14,409 nucleotides of DNA, from the NCBI GenBank assembly GCA_048939465.1, contig JBHLPL010000046.1, forward strand, positions 1 through 14,409. Direction: 5' to 3'. Made by a program: the position numbers and the translations under genes. The notes beneath the pieces were generated by a model. That model was not told the origin of the DNA and searched no databases. It saw only the letters and a list, made by a program, of their open reading frames with translations. The DNA comes from Promethearchaeota archaeon (lineage in GTDB: Archaea; Asgardarchaeota; Odinarchaeia; Odinarchaeales; JBHLKK01). Shown in pieces: positions 1-12,317 of the stretch (position 1 is its first letter; every line of letters starts with the position of its first letter).

Positions 1-2237
1 GGCTCTACACCCAATGCCAGGGCAGGCAACCCGTCAGTAACCAGATTTATCCATAATATCTGGATCGCAATAACCGGAAGCGGTAACCCGATTAGTGTTC
101 CGATGAACAATGTCAGGATCTCCCCGAAGTTTGTAGAGATTAGGTAACGCACTACTTTGGATATATTATCATAGATCATTCTCCCCTCTTCAATAGCGGC
201 AACAATTGATGCAAAATTATCGTCTGTCAGTATCATATCCGAAGCTTCTTTTGTAACCTCGGTTCCCGTGATTCCCATTGCCACTCCTATTTCTGCGCTT
301 TTGAGAGCAGGTGCATCATTTACTCCATCCCCTGTCATAGCGACAATCTGCCTCTTTTTCTTAAACGCTTTTACGATTCTCATTTTATGTTTTGGCGAGA
401 CCCTGGCAAAAACCGCTACTCTGTCTATAGTTCTTTCCAGTTCTTCATCGCTTATTTCATCCAATTCTACACCTGTAAGAACCAGGTCGCCGTCTCTCAT
501 TAAGCTCAGTTCTTTGGCTACGGCCATAGCCGTGATTTTGTGATCGCCGGTGATCATTATGGACCTGATTCCTGCCATCTTAGACAGTCTTAAGGCATCC
601 TTGACCTCCTTTCTTGGTGGATCCATCATCCCGCTTAAACCAACAAAGACAAGATCCTTTTCTACGGTTTCTGATGCAAATTGCGTCATCTTTTTGGGGA
701 GCTTCTTGAAAGCCATTCCCAAGACTCTTAACGCTTTTTCCGCCATTCCCTGATTTATCTGCAGGATCTGCTTCCGTTTTTCTTCAGTCAACTCGTTCAT
801 TTGACCGTTTTCATAAATGTGGCTGGAGAGCCCCAGAACTACTTCGACTGCTCCCTTAACGTACGCAACATTATTGCCTTCTGAAGTGCTATGGATAGTC
901 GTCATACGTTTTCTGTCGGAATCAAACGGAATTTCGATTTTCCGCTTAAACTTCTTTTCCAGTTCATCTTTCTGCAAACCTGCCTTAGCCGCAGCTACCA
1001 GCAGTGCCCCCTCGGTTGTGTCCCCTATTATCAGCCAGTGACCCTTCTCCTCATCGTATTCCAAGCTTGCATTATTACATAATGAATCTATTCTCAATAA
1101 GAGAGAAATACTCTCGTCATTCTTGGGATCAATCTCCTTTCCATCAAGATAGAATTTGCCTTCGGGCTTATAACCCACACCCGTTATCTGATACATCTTA
1201 TTATTCACATAAATCTCCCTTACAGTCATCTCGTTCTGAGTAAGGGTTCCAGTCTTATCAGAGCAAATCACTGTGGAGCAGCCTAATGTTTCGACTGCTG
1301 GTAGTTTCCTTATTATAACATTCCGTTTCACCATTCGCTGAACGCCCAAGGCAAGGGCCATTGTTACAATGGCTGGCAGCCCCTCAGGAATAGCTGCCAC
1401 TGCTAATCCTACAGCGATAAGAAACATTTCAAAAATGTTTAGTGCTCTCAGTACTCCGGTTAGAAAGACGACACCGCACAGGGCAAGTATGATTATTCCA
1501 AGATGCTTGCCCAAGTTGGCAAGCTTAACCTGAAGAGGTGTGGGCTCTCTCTCCGCCACTTGGATCATTTCAGCGATTTGACCAATTTCGGTCTTCATTC
1601 CAGTAGCTACTACAACCCCCTTTCCTCTACCGTAGGTCGAAACCGTTCCCATAAAAATCATATTCCCGCGGTCAGCCAGCGGTGTGTTTTCTGGGATAGC
1701 ATCTATGCCCTTGGATATTGCAAAAGACTCTCCTGTCAAGCTGGATTCATCAACTTTGAGACCGATGACATCGATGAGACGGCTGTCCGCAGGAACTCGG
1801 TCTCCAGTCTCTATAACTATTGTATCTCCTGGGACTATTTCTCGGGAAGGAAGTTCTGCCTCTTTGCCATCACGTATTACAATCGTTCTCGGTGTTGTAA
1901 GTTCTTTTAACGCCTCTAGTGCTCTTTCTGCTCGATATTCTTGTGTGAAGCCTACAATTGCATTAATAACAACTATAATCCCTATGACTACGGTGTCTAT
2001 TATTTCTCCCAAGAAGGCGGATATAGCCATCGCAACAAGGAGTATAATTACTAGATAACTCCTAAATTGCTCAAGGAAGATTCTGTAAGGGGATGTTCTT
2101 TTCTCTCCCCGTAATTCATTAAACCCGTATTTGACTAGTCGGTCCTTCGCTTCTATTCTGCTTAAGCCCTCCGGTCGGGTACCTAGCGCTTCCATTACTT
2201 CTTCCTTTGTCTTGGCATGCCATTTTCCTTCGCTCAA
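1..2237 (-). CDS. Cation (Ca2+)-transporting P-type ATPase, type IIA (SERCA/PMR1-like); partial, runs off the left edge
   Basis: Not in the ORF track because it is open at the edge; translated manually. TTG start at 2237 (MSEGKWHAKTKEEVMEALG; in-frame TGA just upstream at 2244-2246). Motifs: YGFNEL, DESSLTGES, M4 PEGLP, phosphorylation site DKTGTLT (1239-1259), MITGD, TGDGVNDAPAL, M5 RYLISTNFGE, M6 ILWINLVTDGLPALALGVE. Confidence 0.96.
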   Translation of the reverse strand, partial: MSEGKWHAKTKEEVMEALGTRPEGLSRIEAKDRLVKYGFNELRGEKRTSPYRIFLEQFRSYLVIILLVAMAISAFLGEIIDTVVIGIIVVINAIVGFTQEYRAERALEALKELTTPRTIVIRDGKEAELPSREIVPGDTIVIETGDRVPADSRLIDVIGLKVDESSLTGESFAISKGIDAIPENTPLADRGNMIFMGTVSTYGRGKGVVVATGMKTEIGQIAEMIQVAEREPTPLQVKLANLGKHLGIIILALCGVVFLTGVLRALNIFEMFLIAVGLAVAAIPEGLPAIVTMALALGVQRMVKRNVIIRKLPAVETLGCSTVICSDKTGTLTQNEMTVREIYVNNKMYQITGVGYKPEGKFYLDGKEIDPKNDESISLLLRIDSLCNNASLEYDEEKGHWLIIGDTTEGALLVAAAKAGLQKDELEKKFKRKIEIPFDSDRKRMTTIHSTSEGNNVAYVKGAVEVVLGLSSHIYENGQMNELTEEKRKQILQINQGMAEKALRVLGMAFKKLPKKMTQFASETVEKDLVFVGLSGMMDPPRKEVKDALRLSKMAGIRSIMITGDHKITAMAVAKELSLMRDGDLVLTGVELDEISDEELERTIDRVAVFARVSPKHKMRIVKAFKKKRQIVAMTGDGVNDAPALKSAEIGVAMGITGTEVTKEASDMILTDDNFASIVAAIEEGRMIYDNISKVVRYLISTNFGEILTLFIGTLIGLPLPVIAIQILWINLVTDGLPALALGVE

Positions 2238-2356: not shown

Positions 2357-3895
2357 CTAAGCTGATACTTCTGGAGGAGCAGGTAACGGCTCCACCATCT
2401 TTCTAACCTCTGCTGGCCAATCTTCGGGATTGAAACCATGTTGTGCTAAAAAGCCTGCAAGCCATCGTGTGGTTCCCAAACCTGTACATCCTGTCCAGAT
2501 TGGTTCTTTTGTTTCTAACTTGGTTGAGAATCCCTTAACATAATGCTGACCGTGTACATTGCAGGATGCTATCGCCATGCTTTCTTTTTTCTCCGGCGTA
2601 CTGCGGTAGGGTAGGGTGGCCCTAATCTCATATTTGGGAATATCCGGAAGCTCTATATCACGATCTTCTGCAAATCTACCGACTAGGTAAAACGGATCGT
2701 CACCAACTTCGGACCACCACTCCAGCTCCAGTATGTCATCGGCTACTCTCTCTGATTCTTTTAATGTCTGATCACGTATCTCCTCAACCATCTCGGGGGT
2801 TCCTGCCCAAACCAGCTCAATTCTCTGAAGCTCAAATACCCTTTCCAGTCCTTTTGCTCCTCCTGCCTCATATCGCCACGTATATCCGGAATGATCCATG
2901 AACTTTATTGGCAGCTTATCTCTTCTGATGGTCTTACCCCCAAGGTATTGGTAGAATGGTTCGCATTGTGCTGCTGCGAGTGCATAACCTGGGCTCTTCA
3001 GTCCTTTTCTCAGGAGATCATAGGGAATCTTGCGAGTAATGAAGAGCTTTGTTTTCAACTCCTCGAAGAGCTTCGGATCTCTTTCAGGGGATGAGACATA
3101 GAACATGCCTTCACAGATCCCCTCTAGATATCTCATCTTATCCATTATCTCTAATGGAATTAGCTTTGGAAATAAGCACTCCTGAAAGCCTAATTTTTCC
3201 CCAACTTCTTCTATCAAGATTCCTTCAATTACCCTGAACAGCTTGGCCAATGGAGCGGTGTAGAAATACTGCCCTTTTCCTGGGTATTCTTCAATCCATC
3301 CCAGCTCAAAGGCGGTTTGAGTTGGATCGCCTGAGAACTTGGGGACCCGGGGTTTTGATTTTGACACAACTGTTCCAGGAGCCACTTTGGTAGCTCTTTC
3401 AATCAGGGAAGGAAGGGCAAATGATTGAACCAGTCTGATTATACGGTCTATCTCGTATTCTCGCAGAACAGACTCATCGAGATCCTTAAACCGAATTACT
3501 ATGGAATCCGGAGTCACATTGACTTCTGAAACATAAGGTAATGACGGGAGTTCGTCCTCCAGAGGCCTTTCCAATGGAATCTCTATGACGTATTCATCGA
3601 CAAATATCTTACGCGCACCGATTTTATGCTTGGAGCCAGTTATGGCCGCTACAGCCTTGTGTATTCTGAGTATTGCAGTGTGTGCCCGAACATATCTTCC
3701 TGACTCTATAGTCAGACTCAGTTTATCATCCTTGATTCTCCAATTCACGATCCTTGCGGCTTCATCTAATTTGTCCTTGGGAATCCCTTTAGTAAGTAAT
3801 CTTTTATTGGCCTGTGTGATGAATTCCCTTATATCTGACTCGGCTCTTTCCAGATTGTCACTAAATGCTATATAGCCTTTCAACTTGAATTTCAT
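2357..3895 (-). CDS. serS: Seryl-tRNA synthetase, methanogen-type (type 2, zinc-dependent)
   Basis: 512 aa. N-terminal MKFKLKG..FS and IESGRYVRAH are characteristic of the methanogen-type tRNA-binding domain. Motif 1 FPKLIP; AQCEPFY; motif 2 WRYEAGGAKGLERVFELQRIELVW; motif 3 WTGCTGLGTTRW. SD GGAGTGA 7 nt before the ATG. Confidence 0.95.
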   Translation of the reverse strand: MKFKLKGYIAFSDNLERAESDIREFITQANKRLLTKGIPKDKLDEAARIVNWRIKDDKLSLTIESGRYVRAHTAILRIHKAVAAITGSKHKIGARKIFVDEYVIEIPLERPLEDELPSLPYVSEVNVTPDSIVIRFKDLDESVLREYEIDRIIRLVQSFALPSLIERATKVAPGTVVSKSKPRVPKFSGDPTQTAFELGWIEEYPGKGQYFYTAPLAKLFRVIEGILIEEVGEKLGFQECLFPKLIPLEIMDKMRYLEGICEGMFYVSSPERDPKLFEELKTKLFITRKIPYDLLRKGLKSPGYALAAAQCEPFYQYLGGKTIRRDKLPIKFMDHSGYTWRYEAGGAKGLERVFELQRIELVWAGTPEMVEEIRDQTLKESERVADDILELEWWSEVGDDPFYLVGRFAEDRDIELPDIPKYEIRATLPYRSTPEKKESMAIASCNVHGQHYVKGFSTKLETKEPIWTGCTGLGTTRWLAGFLAQHGFNPEDWPAEVRKMVEPLPAPPEVSA

Positions 3896-4224
3896 TCCGT
3901 ACTCACTCCAATTAATGAATATCCTGAAGCATAGCGAGGAAGAAAGCAGTGCCTAGACATTTCTTCACATGCTTCTTTTTGCGTCGAAGATAAATAATCT
4001 ATTTCTCGAACATAGGAAAGACGCTTAAAGCTATTATCTGCCCGTGTGATATATCGGGTTGAAGAAACTAGATCCCGCCATCGGTGTTCCAAACAGGTAA
4101 TGTTGCTGAATTGCGGTGGTTTGCGAGAACACGTTCCGTCTTGGTTTCTACTAGTCTTGTAAATGAGCCCATCATCTAGGGCTGAATCAAAATGAGATGA
4201 GACGATTGGCAGTGATACACTCAC
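3892..4224 (-). CDS. Doubtful Ser-rich hypothetical ORF (110 aa from GTG 4224; the ORF track extends it to 4254)
   Basis: GGAGG 4 nt before the GTG, TATA-like TTTATAT at about 4261-4267, stop overlaps the serS ATG (ATGA). The composition is not protein-like and no family was recognised. Confidence 0.2.
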   Translation of the reverse strand: MSVSLPIVSSHFDSALDDGLIYKTSRNQDGTCSRKPPQFSNITCLEHRWRDLVSSTRYITRADNSFKRLSYVREIDYLSSTQKEACEEMSRHCFLPRYASGYSLIGVSTE

Positions 4225-4312
4225 CTTTCCTCCATGGTGGTAATTACTCAGCAATGATGGATATAAATCTTATCGTCCGCTTCTTCTATTCGGCTTACTT
4301 CCTCTATTTAGC

Positions 4313-5437
4313 CTATATTGATATTCTCTCAGCTAGCCCACTCTTAAGAGCAAAGGTCGCGGTATCTGTAGCCATCTGACTGCGGACTTCTTTTGCTTCT
4401 TTAATGAAGGTTCTTAATGACTGCAAAACCCAACCAGTCACACCAACCCATTCTAAGATCAAACGGGTACATAGTAGTCGCTTGTATTTGATTTCCTGGA
4501 GTTTTAACCACAACAACTCATTTCGCAGTTTTCTTGTCGCATTCTCATCCAATTGATCAAGAATGAGTCTCGATGTGCTTTTGAATCTCCAGTTCTTTTC
4601 TAGCAACAGGCATACGTTTTCTAGAGTTGGTTTTGGCAGTATACTTTTAATCTGCTCATCATCTAGTTTCGGGGCAACAAGTTGACTTGCGAGTTTCATA
4701 AGCATCCTCTCCAACATTAATGCCTTGAACCCGTAGACTAAGTATACCGCACCTTGTTTATCTTTAAACAGATCATCCTCCTTTCTCATGAACCACATTT
4801 CATTGATGACGTCTATGATAGAATCTTGAGTCCTTACTTTCTTACTTTCTCCGCCAAGGGCAAAAGCTTGACTTATCCCGTCAATTATGGGCTCCCTTTC
4901 AGGGAGATAATCAGTTTCTCTACCTAGAAACTTGAGAAGCTGAGCGATTTCGCTTCCAAAATCATAGATAAATGCCCCCCGAATGAATTTCACCTTGTTC
5001 AGGTGGTTCTTCAGCCCGTCTTCTGCCTCTTGAGTCTCGAAGTTGAAATTGCCAGCAATCTGATAGAAAATCCTTAGTGCGGTTGATTTTGCGAAAAAGC
5101 GGACTGCCTCAATTGACGTCTCTGGCGAGAAGCCATTCCCCCGTGCGAGACTCATTATACTCTTGCCCTTCCCGATAAGGGACTTGTTCACAATAACGTC
5201 GTATTTGTTGCCTTTGATCAGATTAGGGTAGTAAAGTCTCTCCTCGTAAATTCTCGTCTTCTTCTCCCTTATGACAATCTGAACGTTGTTGCTTAATGTT
5301 ACTTGGGATCGTTTTAAGAATCCCTTCTCTTCTATGGTTTTTATACTGAGTTGAGGTAAAGCAATGCCTTTAGTCTCATGGAGGGCATTCAAAAACTCTT
5401 GAGTTACGATCTCTGAGCTGATTCTTCCATCACTCAA
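4313..5437 (-). CDS. Hypothetical protein, possibly a degenerate protein-kinase-like fold
   Basis: 374-aa ORF; TTG start with SD GGTGAT; weak kinase-like motif order (VIREK, EERLY, YPNLIK, IYDFG). The ORF is credible; the fold call is weak. Confidence 0.8.
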   Translation of the reverse strand: MSDGRISSEIVTQEFLNALHETKGIALPQLSIKTIEEKGFLKRSQVTLSNNVQIVIREKKTRIYEERLYYPNLIKGNKYDVIVNKSLIGKGKSIMSLARGNGFSPETSIEAVRFFAKSTALRIFYQIAGNFNFETQEAEDGLKNHLNKVKFIRGAFIYDFGSEIAQLLKFLGRETDYLPEREPIIDGISQAFALGGESKKVRTQDSIIDVINEMWFMRKEDDLFKDKQGAVYLVYGFKALMLERMLMKLASQLVAPKLDDEQIKSILPKPTLENVCLLLEKNWRFKSTSRLILDQLDENATRKLRNELLWLKLQEIKYKRLLCTRLILEWVGVTGWVLQSLRTFIKEAKEVRSQMATDTATFALKSGLAERISI

Positions 5438-5611
5438 AAGACTGTATCACCCTCTCTTCGCCATAAGTTGCCTGATTTAATTACAGAATAATAAAGATTA
5501 TTTATAGGAAAACCAAATAAAGATTATCCTTGTTCTCCTGCCATAAGAGAATAAAATCATTCAATATGGATACTTAAAAACTAGGAATATTAGACTTGTA
5601 TGAGGTGCTTT

Positions 5612-6604
5612 GTGCTGGAGGAAGATATTATCGCCGATATAGCTGGAGAAGAGGCTGACGAGGAAGAAGGAGAGATTCTCTATTCAGCAGAGGAACCTTA
5701 CTTCAAACTTAAGAAACAACTAAGATTGACTACCAAAGGGATAGGGATAATGTTTCCGAGAAAGCGAAGACTCCGCTCTGCTGAAGAAGTCTATTTCAAC
5801 CTGTTGTGGAAAAATATTAGTTCTTATGAAGTCTTGGAAGTCATTTTCAACTCTGAAAAGGATTCCCGTCCTAGTGATGAAGAACCTCCTAAGGATTTTA
5901 GATCAGAGGGGAAAACCGGCGAGTTCTTTGTTTTTGGATTCTCTAAGGATGAAACCTGGTTTGCAATGAATGTTTTTTTCCCCCTCAAAGACAGACCTAA
6001 AATTGAGGGGATTATGAGACGGTACGCTGGCCGACCGCCAGTCCCAGGTCTGGCGCACTATGGCAACCTAGCTGTTGTTAAGTATGTTCTTGACCACTGT
6101 AATGTTCTTGGAGAATACGAGATTAGTCTAGAGGACTTTATCTACTCTTCTAGGTTAGTGAAGCAAGCCGGGCTTGATCAGCTGTCACTCAAGCTTAAAG
6201 GAGATGAACCAAGCCCAGTTTTTAACGTGTGTAGCGAAGGCCTCGGGATTCTCTTTACGAAAGATAATATGATCGGACTGCAGCAAGGCTCAACCTTCTG
6301 GCCCTGGAGCAAGATTGAGGAAGTCTTCGAACATAAGGGTGCTATAATTGGCTTCAGATGGAAGGATGAACCTTACAGATTCGGACAGCTGGTTTCAGAT
6401 GACGATATGAGGACAGAAATCCTCGAAAAATGTAACGAGGCTCTTAACAGATATAACCCGAGGCTACATGCTTGGGACACATTCATTCGACCCAATTCAT
6501 TTCCTTCAAGATACACTGATACTTGGTTTGCTCTGGAGCCGATGGGATGTAAAGCAAGCAGAGATGGATTTCCTCCAAAGGCTAAGAATGCTCCTAGATC
6601 CTAG
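5612..6604 (+). CDS. Hypothetical protein with an acidic N-terminus and two possible PH-like/FERM-C-like domains
   Basis: Long ORF (track start 5600; GTG 5612 preferred because GAGGTG at 5602-5607 is an SD). Two segments follow the pattern beta-G-hydrophobic...W-x-x-I...helix (RLTTKGIGI..LLWKNISSY; NVCSEGLGI..WPWSKIEEV..EILEKCNEAL). The stop overlaps the convergent stop at CTAG 6601-6604. Confidence 0.8.
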   Translation: MLEEDIIADIAGEEADEEEGEILYSAEEPYFKLKKQLRLTTKGIGIMFPRKRRLRSAEEVYFNLLWKNISSYEVLEVIFNSEKDSRPSDEEPPKDFRSEGKTGEFFVFGFSKDETWFAMNVFFPLKDRPKIEGIMRRYAGRPPVPGLAHYGNLAVVKYVLDHCNVLGEYEISLEDFIYSSRLVKQAGLDQLSLKLKGDEPSPVFNVCSEGLGILFTKDNMIGLQQGSTFWPWSKIEEVFEHKGAIIGFRWKDEPYRFGQLVSDDDMRTEILEKCNEALNRYNPRLHAWDTFIRPNSFPSRYTDTWFALEPMGCKASRDGFPPKAKNAPRS

Positions 6605-8124
6605 TCTTGATTAGTTCCGGATGAATTCTCCTCAGGCCCTGTGTATCTCTTCGTAACATAATAATGTGCTATCAGGATTGATGTAACTATCGCTGCGATT
6701 AGGCCCCCAATGATAAGATAGACCCATTCTAGCCCACTTGTGCTACCTATTAAGGCAATCAGAATTCCCAGGTAGCCATAGAAGAATGCTCTCGGAAAAG
6801 CACCAACGGCGGTTGCAATCAAAAAACTCCTGAACCTCATTTTAGTCAGACCTGCACCGTAAGAGACTGCGTCAAATGGAATTAACGGAACAAGTCGGCC
6901 AATCAAAACTGCCCAGCCGCCCCATTTTATGAACCACTCATCAGCGAATCGAATACCTCTTTCTCCTATCAAGCGCAGGGCTATGGGTCTGCCTCCGAGT
7001 CTAGAAATATAGAACCCACACAGAGCCCCCGCACACTCTCCTAGTCCTCCAATCAAACCCGTCATTAAAAGCCCAGTCCAGAAACCATAGAGGCTGAAGA
7101 ATGCTCCCCCTCCAAACATTATTATAGCCTCCGAAGGGATTGGAGCTGCTACGGCCTGTACTATCATGACCGCGAAGAATCCTATTGGGCCGATTATGAT
7201 AATCAAGTTTATTAGCCAGTCTACCGCCACACTTGCAGCATTGACTATGGCATCAAGAATAGTCTGTCCTCCCCCTCCAACTAGAACGGGCATCGAAATT
7301 GCAGTAGCTATTAGCCCTAATATAATACAGAAGTAGGCGAAATTAATACGTCGAGAGAGTTTTGTAAGTCCCCCAACTGTTAGGAAACCTATAGCAAATG
7401 CCACCAAAATCATAATCAGAAGTGTAACCAAAGACAGTTCAGCAGAAGTGGGAACGCCATACACGGTGTAGTCCAAGATAACTCCGGCAAGAACGGCCGG
7501 TACGCTCATCATGAAGCTAAGTTTTAAGCTTTCGCTCTGGCCGTAACCTCTCCACAGCAAGGCAGCTATTGTAAATCCTGATCTGCTAATTCCTGGAAGA
7601 ATGGTAAGTCCTTGAACCAGTCCGATTATAAACGCATCCTTCCAGGACATATCAGAAATACGCCTATCGCCGAACATTCTTCTTGATATTAGAAGAGCTA
7701 TTCCTGTTATTATTAGCCCCACTCCCACCACAAGCATGGCGAAGTCCCCATAGACAGGGTTAAAAGAATTCATTATTAGAAGGTAAAGCGGTACGCCTAG
7801 GATTCCTGTGGCTATTGTTGATATCAGAAGAAACTGTCTTAGTTTTGAAGACTCTTCCGTGGTACCCTTAATCACCCCTAGAAAATCACTTCTATAGAAA
7901 ACAGCAACGGCACCTACGGTTCCAATGTGAAGCCACAATGCAATTGAAACGGCCATTGCGGGATCAATCCCCAGAAACGAGGTAAGGAGTAAGACTGACT
8001 GCCCCTCCGAGGATATCGGAAGCCATTCTATTAAACCCTGTAGAATGGCTAAAAGGAGAAATGCCCACAAGGTCTTATCCTTCCAACAAGGTTGTCCTAA
8101 ACCCTCGTTAAGTTCCACAGTCAT
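6601..8124 (-). CDS. uppP: Fusion: BacA/UppP polyprenyl-diphosphate phosphatase (aa ~15-282) + DedA/VTT (SNARE-associated) domain (aa ~288-490)
   Basis: UppP motifs QGLIEWLPISSEGQ, LHIGT and QGLTILPGISRSGFT; Gly4 linker (7267-7278); DedA motifs PIPSEAII.FGGG, WFIKWGGWAVLIGRLVPLIPFDAVSYGAGLTKMRFRSF. One continuous frame. Confidence 0.92.
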   Translation of the reverse strand: MTVELNEGLGQPCWKDKTLWAFLLLAILQGLIEWLPISSEGQSVLLLTSFLGIDPAMAVSIALWLHIGTVGAVAVFYRSDFLGVIKGTTEESSKLRQFLLISTIATGILGVPLYLLIMNSFNPVYGDFAMLVVGVGLIITGIALLISRRMFGDRRISDMSWKDAFIIGLVQGLTILPGISRSGFTIAALLWRGYGQSESLKLSFMMSVPAVLAGVILDYTVYGVPTSAELSLVTLLIMILVAFAIGFLTVGGLTKLSRRINFAYFCIILGLIATAISMPVLVGGGGQTILDAIVNAASVAVDWLINLIIIIGPIGFFAVMIVQAVAAPIPSEAIIMFGGGAFFSLYGFWTGLLMTGLIGGLGECAGALCGFYISRLGGRPIALRLIGERGIRFADEWFIKWGGWAVLIGRLVPLIPFDAVSYGAGLTKMRFRSFLIATAVGAFPRAFFYGYLGILIALIGSTSGLEWVYLIIGGLIAAIVTSILIAHYYVTKRYTGPEENSSGTNQD

Positions 8125-8136
8125 TTAAAAAGGTTC

Positions 8137-8202
8137 TCATGATTTACGAACGAAGAGTTTATAAGAATAAGGAAATAAATCGTCTTCGGTATTCAATCAT
8201 GA
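8137..8202. promoter_or_regulatory. Divergent overlapping promoters framed by an imperfect 20-bp inverted repeat
   Basis: Arms 8137-8156 (TCATGATT-tacgaa-CGAAGA) and the reverse complement of 8183-8202 (TCATGATT-gaatac-CGAAGA). Each arm ends in a purine-rich BRE-like hexamer followed by a TATA-like box (TTTATAAG + 8158-8165; ATTTATTT - 8180-8173). Confidence 0.55.
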
Positions 8203-10036: not shown

Positions 10037-10774
10037 ATGGACGAAATAGTATGCCCGAATTGCGGAAGAGCGGTTCCCCAATTCCACAAGTTCTGCCAGT
10101 ACTGTGGTGCAGCTCTCCCTCAAGATCCTGTCCTGTCCTTATTGAGACCTCCGGACTACGGAGAATTCCTTCCGGAAAAAATAAGGGAGCAGCTAGAATT
10201 CCGGGGACAACTAGCTGAGCTAAAAGATGAGAAGTATAAATGCTATGAGAGAGTCAAAAGACTCGAAAGAGATCTTTCTGGCGGTAAGAAGTCATTACCC
10301 GAAATCGAGACCGAGCTTAAGAAATTGAAAGAGCGTATAAAGAAGATTAAAGCTGCTGAGAAAAATCTAACCGAATCAATTGAGAAGCTTCCATTTGAGG
10401 AGATGCTTAATCGAAAGAAAACCATTAAGGAACGCATGAAGAAACTCGACGAGATTCTTGAGGCTGGAAGAATAACTGAAGATGTCTATCACAAATTAAG
10501 AAGAGAATTCAAAACAGAACTGGAGGTTGTGGAGGGGCAATTCTCTGATTATGATAATCAGATTAAGCATTGGCTGAGTAAATTCAAGTCAGACATAAAG
10601 GAAAGCAAAGACGAGCTGAATGTTTTATACGCGAGATACGAAATTGGTCAAATAAGTGAAAAGGATTATTCTAAAAAGAAAGACGAATTAGAAAAGGAAT
10701 TGAAAAGCGCAAAGCGATGTTTTTCTATATTAAAATCCGAGTCATCAGTTCTCAAACCGAGCAAAAACAAATGA
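10037..10774 (+). CDS. Zinc-ribbon + CdvA-like coiled-coil protein
   Basis: N-terminal CPNCG..FCQYCG; long K/E-rich coiled coil with LEAGRITEDVY (G144) and YEIGQISEKDY (G204) motifs 60 aa apart, resembling the CdvA C-terminal helical domain. Confidence 0.85.
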   Translation: MDEIVCPNCGRAVPQFHKFCQYCGAALPQDPVLSLLRPPDYGEFLPEKIREQLEFRGQLAELKDEKYKCYERVKRLERDLSGGKKSLPEIETELKKLKERIKKIKAAEKNLTESIEKLPFEEMLNRKKTIKERMKKLDEILEAGRITEDVYHKLRREFKTELEVVEGQFSDYDNQIKHWLSKFKSDIKESKDELNVLYARYEIGQISEKDYSKKKDELEKELKSAKRCFSILKSESSVLKPSKNK

Positions 10775-11438: not shown

Positions 11439-12317
11439 ATGGCATCAAGAAGACCTTCCAAAATCAGGGTTGTCAGATTTGCGACTCAATTAACATCATT
11501 CATATTGCTAAATGCGGCTCTTATAGGTGTTGTTTTTAACCTTGTGGTACCGTTCTTGCATCCTTTCTCGTCCCCTTTAACCAATGCAGGAGGGGCTTTT
11601 GAACTGCTGCTGAAGCTTTCAGTTGACCTTGTCTTTCCTTTCATTCCTCTGGCTGTCTTTCTAATAATTGCAGCTGTTTTTGGGCGGGCTTTCTGCGGCT
11701 GGGCCTGTCCATTTGGCTTTATTCAGGATTTGATTGGAATGATCCCAACTAAAAAACGTAATCCGTCCAAAAAGACTGAAAAAAGCCTTTCTGAAATAAA
11801 ATTCGTTATACTTGGGATTTTGATAATTCTTACCATCTGGGTAGTTATCTCCAAAATTCAGGGAGCTGAGGCCATAATTCTCCAAGCTCTTGGACCTTTC
11901 GCAGAAAGTCCTTTTGAGCCCCTCTCTCCCGTAACGACGCTCTTTTCCTTAATCCCTTGGATGATAATTCAAGGAACCATTGCTGAAATACTCTCAGGGA
12001 ACATTTTGCTTTGGATGCGGCTTGTGATTTTGGCAGGAGTTCTTATTCTGGTACTTTATGTCCCTCGTGCTTGGTGCAGGTGGTTCTGCCCCGCTGGAGC
12101 TATTCTAGGGATATTTAGCAAGAACAGTTTCTTAGGAATAAAAAGAAAGATCACTAAATGCACGACTGAGAAATGCAGGAGAGAGTGCGAAGCTAAGTGT
12201 CCCATGGCCATAAGAATAATCCAAGAACCCTGGAAGAGAATACGCCATCATAATTGCATACTATGTCTTAACTGTAAAGCATGTCCGGAAGATGCAATCG
12301 AGATGGCTGCACCATAG
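11439..12317 (+). CDS. Membrane 4Fe-4S binding protein (NapH/MauN/FixG-like polyferredoxin)
   Basis: Multi-TM protein with two CxxxCP motifs (GRAFCGWACPFG, RAWCRWFCPAG) and a C-terminal ferredoxin-like pair (CTTEKCRRECEAKCP, CILCLNCKACP). Confidence 0.9.
   Translation: MASRRPSKIRVVRFATQLTSFILLNAALIGVVFNLVVPFLHPFSSPLTNAGGAFELLLKLSVDLVFPFIPLAVFLIIAAVFGRAFCGWACPFGFIQDLIGMIPTKKRNPSKKTEKSLSEIKFVILGILIILTIWVVISKIQGAEAIILQALGPFAESPFEPLSPVTTLFSLIPWMIIQGTIAEILSGNILLWMRLVILAGVLILVLYVPRAWCRWFCPAGAILGIFSKNSFLGIKRKITKCTTEKCRRECEAKCPMAIRIIQEPWKRIRHHNCILCLNCKACPEDAIEMAAP

Follow-up and report, generated by a model that had tools for sequence, protein, structure and literature searches.

Background

How dolichyl phosphate returns to the cytoplasmic leaflet is unsolved in archaea as well as in eukaryotes. 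Neither recycling nor a flippase is mentioned in a 2024 review on N-glycosylation in archaea, and the candidates named by Roney & Rudner, PopT in archaea and 'a DedA member' in eukaryotes, are guesses. The locus described here, on a stretch of 14,409 nucleotides (hereafter the window), raises the question whether a single archaeal polypeptide could dephosphorylate the spent carrier and bring it back. A first-pass annotation, made from the DNA alone, had read one frame of 507 aa as a complete UppP/BacA phosphatase, a GGGG linker and a complete DedA domain, and had proposed a one-chain recycling machine. Here we examine whether this fusion is real, what each half is likely to do and which function best explains the whole.

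The fusion gene and its domains

The 507-aa frame is uninterrupted and lies on the minus strand (between 6601 and 8124 the plus strand has many stops), with ATG at 8124-8122 and TAG at 6603-6601. All three parts that had been read in it are there in one chain. Pfam PF02673 (BacA) matches residues 23-272 over profile positions 2-257 of 257 with 168 bits (cut-off 33.4) and PF09335 (VTT_dom) matches residues 329-454 over positions 1-122 of 123 with 80 bits (cut-off 33.9). PAP2 (PF01569) gave no Pfam match in the fusion protein, the phosphatase half being UppP. Of all segments the linker is conserved least (12-67% identity). It has an AF2 pLDDT of about 74; its amphipathic helix is an N-terminal helix that is also present in stand-alone VTT relatives. 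Feature coordinates are collected in Table 1.

Table 1. Features of the fusion gene and its upstream region (window coordinates; residues numbered from the initiator Met).
Feature	Position	Strand	Remarks
UppP-VTT fusion ORF	6601..8124	-	507 codons + TAG stop; protein P0001
UppP/BacA domain, res 19-282	7279..8070	-	Pfam 168 bits; alignment to E. coli BacA 5OON/6CB2; archaeal-type undecaprenyl/polyprenyl-diphosphatase
BacA motif 1, res 29-42 (Q29, E33, S38, S39, Q42)	7999..8040	-	First re-entrant loop
BacA motif 2 PGISRSG, res 177-183	7576..7596	-	R181 = R174, S180 = S173 of E. coli BacA
Linker, res 283-306	7207..7278	-	GGGG 283-286 (window 7267-7278), then amphipathic helix without Lys/Arg
VTT/DedA-superfamily domain, res 307-495	6640..7206	-	YdjZ/TVP38 (COG0398)-type; Pfam 80 bits; YdjZ similarity; tree placement
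Re-entrant hairpin 1 tip PIPSE, res 328-332	7129..7143	-	E332 aligns with YqjA D51
Re-entrant hairpin 2 tip GRLVPLIPFD, res 409-418	6871..6900	-	YqjA alignment
TATA-like element cttataaac	8157..8165	-	About 35 nt 5' of ATG; by-eye reading

No glycosylation or lipid gene lies beside the fusion, be it in the window or in Odinarchaeum. The neighbouring genes encode a P-type ATPase, SerRS, two soluble proteins of unknown function, PhoU_div and a tRNA-splicing endonuclease.

Host, junction and distribution

The host is an archaeon, as had been supposed: it belongs to the Asgard phylum and to the GTDB order that also holds Odinarchaeum. The NCBI label 'Hodarchaeota' of close relatives was considered as a guide to placement and dropped, GTDB grouping and gene order both pointing to Odinarchaeum.

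The fusion is real, conserved and restricted to one lineage. Contigs from three other studies span the junction (about 7207-7280) with no substitution or indel, and the same fusion is carried by about 13 clusters at 90% identity, among them that of the closed genome of Odinarchaeum yellowstonii, where gene order is that of the window. Fusions that have diverged by about 50% are aligned yet with linker length and reading frame kept. That two adjacent genes were joined by a sequencing error, at assembly or at gene calling, can hence be dismissed with near certainty: apart from the split, adjacent uppP/vtt form that does occur in Sif/Borrarchaeia we found nothing in its favour, and an identical junction in three studies, a closed chromosome, independent assemblies behind the clusters and a conserved frame have already refuted it.

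A survey of 400 genomes of the phylum places the fusion in a single order, where all seven genomes have it; the other 393 genomes lack it. An exhaustive phmmer search of 1.84 billion representatives returned the fusion solely from the Odin-related set among its best 150 matches, a range below which a bacterial fusion of UppP with a COG0586 DedA domain would score, so that such a protein is not covered by it; two word-index searches and Atlas clusters of at least 50 members likewise gave the fusion in the Odin-related set only.

Both halves are under purifying selection. Between the two families of the order identity is 51-64% for the VTT half, 44-50% for the UppP half and 12-35% for the linker. 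The fused VTT halves are monophyletic in our tree (support 96/91), and for the fused UppP halves an AU test does not reject a common clade (p = 0.29). The probable origin of the fusion is read-through between two neighbouring genes, uppP followed by vtt, in the common ancestor of the order to which Odinarchaeum belongs.

The UppP half is probably competent

E. coli BacA (5OON/6CB2) aligns over residues 22-276 with an E-value of 3e-21 at about 25-30% identity, and comparison of the UppP domain with archaeal UppP models gives a TM-by-hit of 0.9 (AF2 prediction, pLDDT 86.8). Compared with the E. coli enzyme the fusion keeps the equivalents of E21, S26/S27, S173/R174 and R261, has the same predicted fold and presumably the same N-out/C-out orientation; it differs in a Gln for H30, in an added C-terminal transporter domain of 220 residues and in its substrate, presumably the dolichyl- or polyprenyl-PP of N-glycosylation instead of the peptidoglycan carrier. 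In the alignment E33 and S39 correspond to E21 and S27, and Q42 stands at H30. E33, S38, S39, S180 and R181 are invariant in all 11 aligned fusions, and mutagenesis has shown E21, S27 and R174 of E. coli BacA to be essential (PMC4641660).

Could the UppP half nevertheless be a non-enzyme that binds polyprenyl-PP/P or anchors the VTT transporter? This would be suggested by the Gln at the H30 position, where mutants are inactive according to Chang et al. in the form in which PMC4641660 cites that work, and by the NCBIfam species-level equivalog models for UppP, all of which score below cut-off (e.g. 165 vs 354). We consider it very unlikely. The equivalents of the essential Glu, Ser and Arg are all kept, H30A retains about 6% activity and still complements (Manat et al.; PMC4641660), and no second UppP accompanies the fusion in six of the order's seven genomes, a closed one among the six. 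In addition, among 184 motif-bearing homologues the position holds Gln in 96 and His in only nine; the 175 non-His proteins are nearly all stand-alone. The change from His to Gln characterises the archaeal subfamily as a whole. As His is rare among homologues and H30A still complements, Q42 does not disqualify the domain as UppP/BacA, and we rejected H30Q as the mark of a dead enzyme. Sub-threshold NCBIfam scores are what a divergent branch of archaeal proteins would be expected to give. We found no characterised archaeal UppP in the literature consulted.

The VTT half is of the YdjZ/TVP38 type

The second half belongs to the VTT superfamily, with a full-length profile match, two re-entrant hairpins and the helix pattern in the AF2 model. 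By structure it lies next to a VTT cluster from archaea in the Atlas (TM 0.80) and to Pyr_redox-fused VTT proteins, the typical COG0398 fusion. PIPSE (328-332), GRLVP (409-413) and LIPFD (414-418), the motifs singled out in the first-pass annotation, are in place. Its reading that the first Arg is kept and the second replaced also stands, R130 of E. coli YqjA aligning with R410 and R136 with P416. The hairpin tips hold one acidic and one Arg residue.

The comparison with UptA/YngC-type flippases, on which the same annotation had drawn for function, does not hold. UptA (B. subtilis YngC) and E. coli YqjA/YghB (COG0586) share the fold with two opposed re-entrant hairpins and the residues at D51 (E332) and R130 (R410), but the fusion lacks the equivalents of E39 and R136; with Q323, E332, R410 and P416 in place of the UptA-type set (E39, D51, R130, R136) it falls outside that subfamily. 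NCBIfam UptA models give 44-47 bits against cut-offs of 250/300. Among the E. coli paralogues YdjZ scores 89 bits, YdjX 33 and YqjA/YqaA at most 2, and the tree puts the VTT half in a clade with YdjZ/YdjX (support 92/98). YdjZ / TVP38-TMEM64 (COG0398; eukaryotic TMEM41B, VMP1, Tvp38) is accordingly the best match, with the YdjZ-type hairpin-2 motif R-x-x-P-x-x-P, extended as R-x-x-P-x-x-P-F-D...Y-x-x-G-L-T, common to both. The fusion differs from YdjZ in keeping the hairpin-1 acid (PIPSE; YdjZ has PLPAF) and in carrying a phosphatase. Todor et al. (2023; PMC10127716) judged COG0398 proteins unlikely to flip UndP and likened them to eukaryotic phospholipid scramblases.

Topology

Both termini and the active site of BacA are outside (PMC5852022); in YqjA the D51 hairpin enters from outside and the R130 hairpin from inside. 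Applied to the fusion, whose predicted segments leave 23 Lys/Arg inside and 2 outside, this suggests a coherent topology in which the UppP C-terminus would be outside and the first VTT hairpin would enter from there. E. coli YdjZ reaches the same starting point by an extra N-terminal TM helix, a role that the last helix of UppP takes over in the fusion. The word 'machine', if taken as physical channelling of substrate, found no support. Co-modelling the halves as separate chains gave a score of 0.00 with poorly folded chains, a result with no bearing on domain docking.

Genomic inventory and linkage to phosphatases

Searches of six genomes, that of the window and five sisters of which one is closed, turned up neither PopT (DUF368, PF04018) nor an UptA-type DedA. 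PopT, the proposed archaeal Dol-P transporter, has the same proposed job as the VTT half, return of the carrier monophosphate, and is of an unrelated family. The only other VTT protein in the inventory is YqaA-like, and one PAP2 phosphatase is also encoded. The window's genome further encodes a cis-prenyltransferase, an enzyme of the PF00953 GlcNAc-1-P-transferase family and AglB/STT3.

Linkage of VTT genes to phosphatases recurs outside the fusion. In Sif/Borrarchaeia uppP is followed on the same strand, 120-160 bp downstream, by a VTT gene of a different clade, and the gene for P0063, a stand-alone VTT protein among the closest to the fused one, lies 5 bp upstream of a PAP2 gene, with PIG-L next. 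Most stand-alone relatives of the fused VTT clade are without a phosphatase neighbour, and none was found for P0072, P0137, the G001 VTT, P0128 and P0036. Two stand-alone relatives (Jordarchaeales and a related MAG) are encoded just downstream of a geranylgeranyl-reductase-family gene, a neighbour that fits membrane-lipid as well as dolichol biosynthesis.

In bacteria such linkages are published. The first-pass annotation gave mainly PAP2 as fusion partner of DedA. DedA-PAP2 fusions and dedA-uppP adjacency are described by Roney & Rudner (10.1101/2022.02.03.479048 / Nature 2023), Sit et al. (10.1101/2022.02.04.479082 / PMC9876793) and Todor et al. (PMC10127716), and we found no UppP-DedA fusion there. 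The present fusion is a variant of that theme. Alike is the tie between a DedA domain and an outward-facing carrier-pyrophosphate phosphatase, i.e. sequential steps of the carrier cycle. The published cases are bacterial, with PAP2 as fused partner, uppP by adjacency only (Streptomyces, Paenibacillus) and a COG0586/UptA-type DedA, whereas here UppP itself is fused to a COG0398/YdjZ-type domain in an Asgard archaeon without peptidoglycan.

Proposed function

We infer that the fusion is a bifunctional membrane protein that recycles a polyprenyl, most likely dolichyl, glycan carrier, a reading that we favour on balance as the best explanation of the whole. Its most likely function would be dephosphorylation of polyprenyl/dolichyl-PP outside the cell, coupled to return of the monophosphate carrier. 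AglB/STT3 would transfer the glycan from its pyrophosphate-linked carrier and leave carrier-PP in the outer leaflet, where the UppP domain, opening outward as in E. coli BacA, would remove the terminal phosphate. The tethered VTT domain, with E332 and R410/D418 in its two opposed hairpins, could then act as a flippase or scramblase and carry the monophosphate head group back to the cytoplasmic leaflet, with the isoprenoid tail remaining in the membrane. Joining the domains in one chain would set a 1:1 ratio and proximity of the two steps.

This recycling role is favoured by the completeness of both domains, the conserved Glu/Ser/Arg triad, a VTT half conserved even above the UppP half, the monophyly of the fused VTT halves and the coherent topology; by a sole UppP without PopT in genomes that have cis-prenyltransferase, the PF00953 transferase and AglB; and by the independent linkages of DedA-superfamily proteins to carrier-PP phosphatases. 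It is weakened by the COG0398 type of the VTT half, without the second Arg and the E39-equivalent acid, by the Gln at H30 and the missed NCBIfam cut-offs, by a host carrier that may be either Dol-PP or Dol-P, by the many VTT relatives without a phosphatase neighbour and by window neighbours unrelated to glycosylation.

The strongest alternative, though unlikely, keeps the architecture and turns the VTT half into a non-specific or outward-delivering scramblase for new polyprenyl-PP. Polyprenyl-PP made by cis-prenyltransferase in the cytoplasmic leaflet would be brought to the outward UppP site and the product equilibrated too, so that the fusion would solve the access of de novo carrier-PP to an outside phosphatase, instead of or besides recycling. 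Eukaryotic relatives of the YdjZ/TVP38 group are described as bidirectional phospholipid scramblases, the BacA structure paper (PMC5852022) counts the phosphatase that acts on de novo C55-PP among the unknowns, a 2025 review offers a 'flip-flop' model for that lipid, and a sole UppP may have to serve de novo synthesis too. On the other hand, direct evidence of PP-lipid transport by a DedA-superfamily protein was not found in the literature consulted, and the one encoded PAP2 phosphatase could act on either pool.

Next in probability, and likewise unlikely, the VTT half would serve the isoprenoid phospholipids of the archaeal membrane as a general scramblase or homeostasis factor, fused for co-expression or co-localisation with no substrate in common. 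Published opinion on COG0398 leans this way, as do the relatives next to geranylgeranyl-reductase-family genes and the majority without a phosphatase neighbour. Set against this are the retention of the fusion in both families of the order despite a sequence difference of about 50% between them, and the phosphatase linkage itself, seen in three independent archaeal cases (the fusion, the Sif/Borrarchaeia adjacency, P0063 with PAP2) besides the bacterial ones, which argues for a shared substrate and is otherwise hard to explain.

A wider role may be considered tentatively, with doubt prevailing: YdjZ/TVP38-type VTT domains, the prokaryotic branch nearest to TMEM41B, VMP1, TVP38 and TMEM64, could be polyprenyl/dolichyl-phosphate translocases, and the fusion a Rosetta stone for Dol-P return in N-glycosylation of archaea and, by descent, possibly in the eukaryotic ER.

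Significance

For Dol-P return the fusion provides a candidate that is concrete and can be cloned. It comes from the archaeal phylum to which eukaryotes are thought to be most closely related and from the very COG0398/TVP38-like subfamily argued not to handle polyprenyl phosphates; the case for it is strengthened by the linkage in two further independent archaeal contexts. Should the proposed activity be true, functions across the DedA superfamily would have to be mapped anew, archaeal UppP would have its first assigned role, and Dol-P movement by relatives of TMEM41B, VMP1 and TVP38 would become directly testable. Should the VTT half be only a general scramblase, the finding would shrink to a lineage-specific curiosity.

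Upstream region

The TATA-like cttataaac sits in a 94-bp divergent intergenic region common to the fusion gene and the PhoU_div gene. A look-up among public RNA runs returned none that carries the gene. It is a possible promoter, put forward with low confidence, of a short-leader mRNA.

Domain architecture and topology

The 507-aa UppP-VTT protein is encoded by a single frame as described in the first-pass annotation; the frame lies on the minus strand (ATG at 8124, TAG at 6603-6601, 507 codons), and the plus strand of 6601-8124 carries stops throughout. The same annotation had both domains complete, which the Pfam profiles confirm, and the GGGG, PIPSE, GRLVP and LIPFD motifs it listed were all found. 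Codon 19, a TTG, matches the position at which most homologues begin with 'MW'; hence the first 18 residues are uncertain, which is of no importance.

Features of the fusion protein, its neighbourhood and linked loci in other genomes (nt, nucleotide positions in the window or in the named locus; res, residues of the fusion)
Feature	Position	Strand	Evidence
BacA/UppP domain	res 23-272		Pfam 168 bits, profile 2-257 of 257
GGGG	res 283-286		
VTT/DedA domain	res 329-454		Pfam 80 bits, profile 1-122 of 123
TATA-like element	~35 nt upstream of fusion ATG		
Methanogen-type seryl-tRNA synthetase, class II aaRS, 512 aa	nt 2357-3895	-	NF002120 639 bits (cut-off 611); TIGR00415 serS_MJ 610 bits
Soluble protein, 374 aa	nt 4313-5437	-	no Pfam/NCBIfam match
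Soluble protein, 334 aa	nt 5600-6604	+	no Pfam/NCBIfam match
Protein with N-terminal zinc ribbon and C-terminal coiled coil, 245 aa	nt 10037-10774	+	weak CdvA-like, GvpG-like and SMC-like matches
NapH/Fer4_5-type polyferredoxin membrane protein, 292 aa	nt 11439-12317	+	below family cut-offs
uppP-VTT pair, Sif/Borrarchaeia	L006 nt 4393-6049		
uppP-VTT pair, Sif/Borrarchaeia	L007 nt 3565-5146		
uppP-VTT pair, Sif/Borrarchaeia	L008 nt 2884-4375		
uppP-VTT pairs, Sif/Borrarchaeia	L094, L096, L097, L098		
Geranylgeranyl-reductase-family flavoprotein and VTT	L110 nt 2536-4909		
Geranylgeranyl-reductase-family flavoprotein and VTT	L111 nt 2774-4837		

Both termini and the active-site opening of BacA lie outside (PMC5852022), and the Lys/Arg residues of the fusion number 23 in predicted cytoplasmic segments, 2 in predicted outside segments and 0 in the linker. 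VTT hairpin 1 (tip PIPSE) is therefore predicted to enter from outside, and hairpin 2, which holds R410, from inside, in agreement with the experimentally mapped YqjA, where D51 is in the outer and R130/R136 are in the inner hairpin. In E. coli YdjZ an additional N-terminal TM helix leads the chain outside before the same amphipathic helix, a role taken in the fusion by UppP's last helix. The stand-alone VTT relative P0063 can be aligned from residue 289 of the fusion onward, so the two domains are joined plainly end to start, with a linker of at most 8 residues.

Proposed carrier recycling and its alternatives

The most economical reading, which we consider somewhat probable, is that of a one-chain carrier recycler, in which polyprenyl/dolichyl-PP would be hydrolysed outside by the UppP domain and the resulting monophosphate translocated by the VTT domain tethered to it. 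Carrier substrate, transport direction, enzyme activity itself and any coupling beyond proximity are what we infer here. Coupled dolichyl-PP hydrolysis and dolichyl-P flipping, as first proposed, is partly supported: the domain architecture, its conservation, a coherent topology, the gene content of the genome and the repeated genetic linkage are shown, and a DedA half of YdjZ and not of UptA type speaks against it.

The window's genome, which is 91% complete, and five sister genomes, of which one is closed, have no PF02673 match besides the fused gene; a YqaA-like paralogue is the sole further VTT protein in these six, and the proposed archaeal Dol-P transporter PopT (PF04018) was not found. 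The window's genome has one PAP2 gene and encodes a cis-prenyltransferase, AglB/STT3 and a PF00953 sugar-1-phosphate transferase of the type creating pyrophosphate-linked carriers; such a set belongs to a cycle in which carrier-PP would be set free outside.

By identity (46-49%), the UppP of Sif/Borrarchaeia ranks with the closest stand-alone relatives, and in all these genomes with sequence available a same-strand VTT gene follows 120-160 bp downstream of uppP. That VTT forms a different, divergent clade (E39-like Glu, PIPSP tip, one Arg; 80-95 bits on the UptA model), and the pair links UppP and DedA a second time and independently. P0063 is one of the stand-alone proteins nearest to the fused VTT; its gene lies 5 bp before a PAP2 gene, with a PIG-L deacetylase next. 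In Jordarchaeales and a related MAG, a geranylgeranyl-reductase-family flavoprotein precedes a stand-alone VTT relative by 70-280 bp, which may reflect an isoprenoid/dolichol-saturation link; neighbours of the remaining relatives examined were uninformative. The metagenomic proteins P0092 and P0207 (562-569 aa) are another UppP fusion, with a BacA domain followed by SPFH/Band_7.

A likeness of the DedA half to UptA-type flippases was not borne out. Against E. coli references it scores 89 bits with YdjZ and 33 with YdjX (both COG0398), 2 with YqjA (COG0586, UptA type) and 0.6 with YqaA; NCBIfam UptA models give 44-47 bits (cut-off 250). Twelve fused VTT halves are monophyletic (96/91) within a YdjZ-like clade (92/98), and their nearest stand-alone relatives in the tree are archaeal. 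The earlier caveat of a TVP38-like LIPFD in place of the second Arg was justified and matters: YqjA residues E39, D51, R130 and R136 align with Q323, E332, R410 and P416, and the hairpin tips keep a single acid and a single Arg, with D418 of the PFD motif in addition.

We consider it rather unlikely that VTT is a scramblase whose additional, or main, task is to carry de novo carrier-PP outward. A role as a general scramblase of phospholipids, sharing no substrate with UppP, would fit the view of Todor et al., who judged COG0398 proteins unlikely UndP flippers and closest to eukaryotic scramblases; set against the recurrent genetic linkage, we regard it as distinctly unlikely.

Published support for UptA includes DedA-PAP2 fusions, which make up ~1.3% of dedA genes, and the adjacency of dedA and uppP in Streptomyces and Paenibacillus. 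PAP2 and rhodanese fusions of DedA were catalogued by Sit et al. and by Todor et al.; the first-pass annotation had named PAP2, and not BacA, as the chief partner. The DedA/UppP literature examined, 2025-2026 reviews included, does not mention a UppP-DedA fusion, and recycling of the carrier is not covered in a 2024 review on N-glycosylation in archaea. The Rosetta-stone logic is already published, and what is new is the UppP-DedA combination in an archaeon, which differs from the published DedA-PAP2 fusions in phosphatase family, DedA subfamily and domain of life. With it, two questions can be tested directly: what protein returns Dol-P, and do VTT domains of TVP38/YdjZ type handle polyprenyl phosphates.

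The UppP half

The UppP half aligns to E. coli BacA (5OON/6CB2) across residues 22-276, and its AF2 model (pLDDT 86.8) superposes with archaeal UppP models at a TM-by-hit of 0.9. E21, S27 and R174 are essential in BacA, whereas H30A retains ~6% activity and complementation (Manat et al., PMC4641660). E33, S39 and R181, as well as S38, S180 and R259, are invariant in all aligned fusions, while the H30 position holds Gln. Among 184 motif-bearing homologues, nearly all stand-alone, this position is Gln in 96 and His in 9, so Gln is a subfamily trait and no mark of decay. With these residues kept, a catalytically dead UppP module is very improbable. In a tree the fused UppP halves fall inside an Asgard clade of UppP (86/95), and an AU test does not reject their monophyly (p = 0.29).

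Distribution and conservation

The fusion is genuine and rare, and it suggests a mechanism. Of 400 genomes from the phylum, only seven, all from two genera in a single GTDB order, gave a match: three of the window's genus and three of Odinarchaeum at full length, plus one more of Odinarchaeum cut by a contig end; no full-length match was found in the remaining 393. The best 150 phmmer matches listed from 1.84 billion representatives include one full-length fused representative and two truncated ones, and no Atlas cluster of at least 50 members combines both domains. Word-index searches of 5.8 billion proteins gave 13 clusters (90% identity) of 484-510 aa that contain both Pfam domains; the closed chromosome CP091871.1 of Candidatus Odinarchaeum yellowstonii encodes one of these proteins. 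Near-identical gene copies occur in mangrove and sediment metagenomes, and the junction, for which a check in reads and sister genomes had been advised, is covered by contigs of three other studies of such metagenomes, with zero substitutions and zero indels. An artefact is refuted by these identical junctions and the 13 clusters. Both halves are under purifying selection; between-family identity is 44-50% for UppP, 51-64% for VTT and 12-35% for the linker.

As the fusion is confined to Odinarchaeum's GTDB order, the host is Odin-related. At NCBI its closest relatives are named 'Hodarchaeota' or 'Promethearchaeota archaeon'; the former label was rejected as a placement, since GTDB groups the window's genome in Odinarchaeum's order and the gene order agrees with that of O. 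yellowstonii over >11 kb. The window's genome is larger (1.96 Mb versus 1.3-1.4 Mb).

Genomic neighbourhood

The order shared with O. yellowstonii is P-type ATPase, methanogen-type SerRS, 374-aa protein, 334-aa protein, fusion, PhoU_div and tRNA-splicing endonuclease. Both soluble proteins are kept beside the fusion in all Odin-related loci examined, and the 334-aa frame is convergent with the fusion, overlapping it by 4 nt at its stop codon. The zinc-ribbon/coiled-coil protein is also found near the fusion in Odinarchaeum. The SerRS, with a tRNA_bind_4 N-domain, is of a rare form, here in an Odin-related Asgard genome, and occupies the same position in O. yellowstonii.
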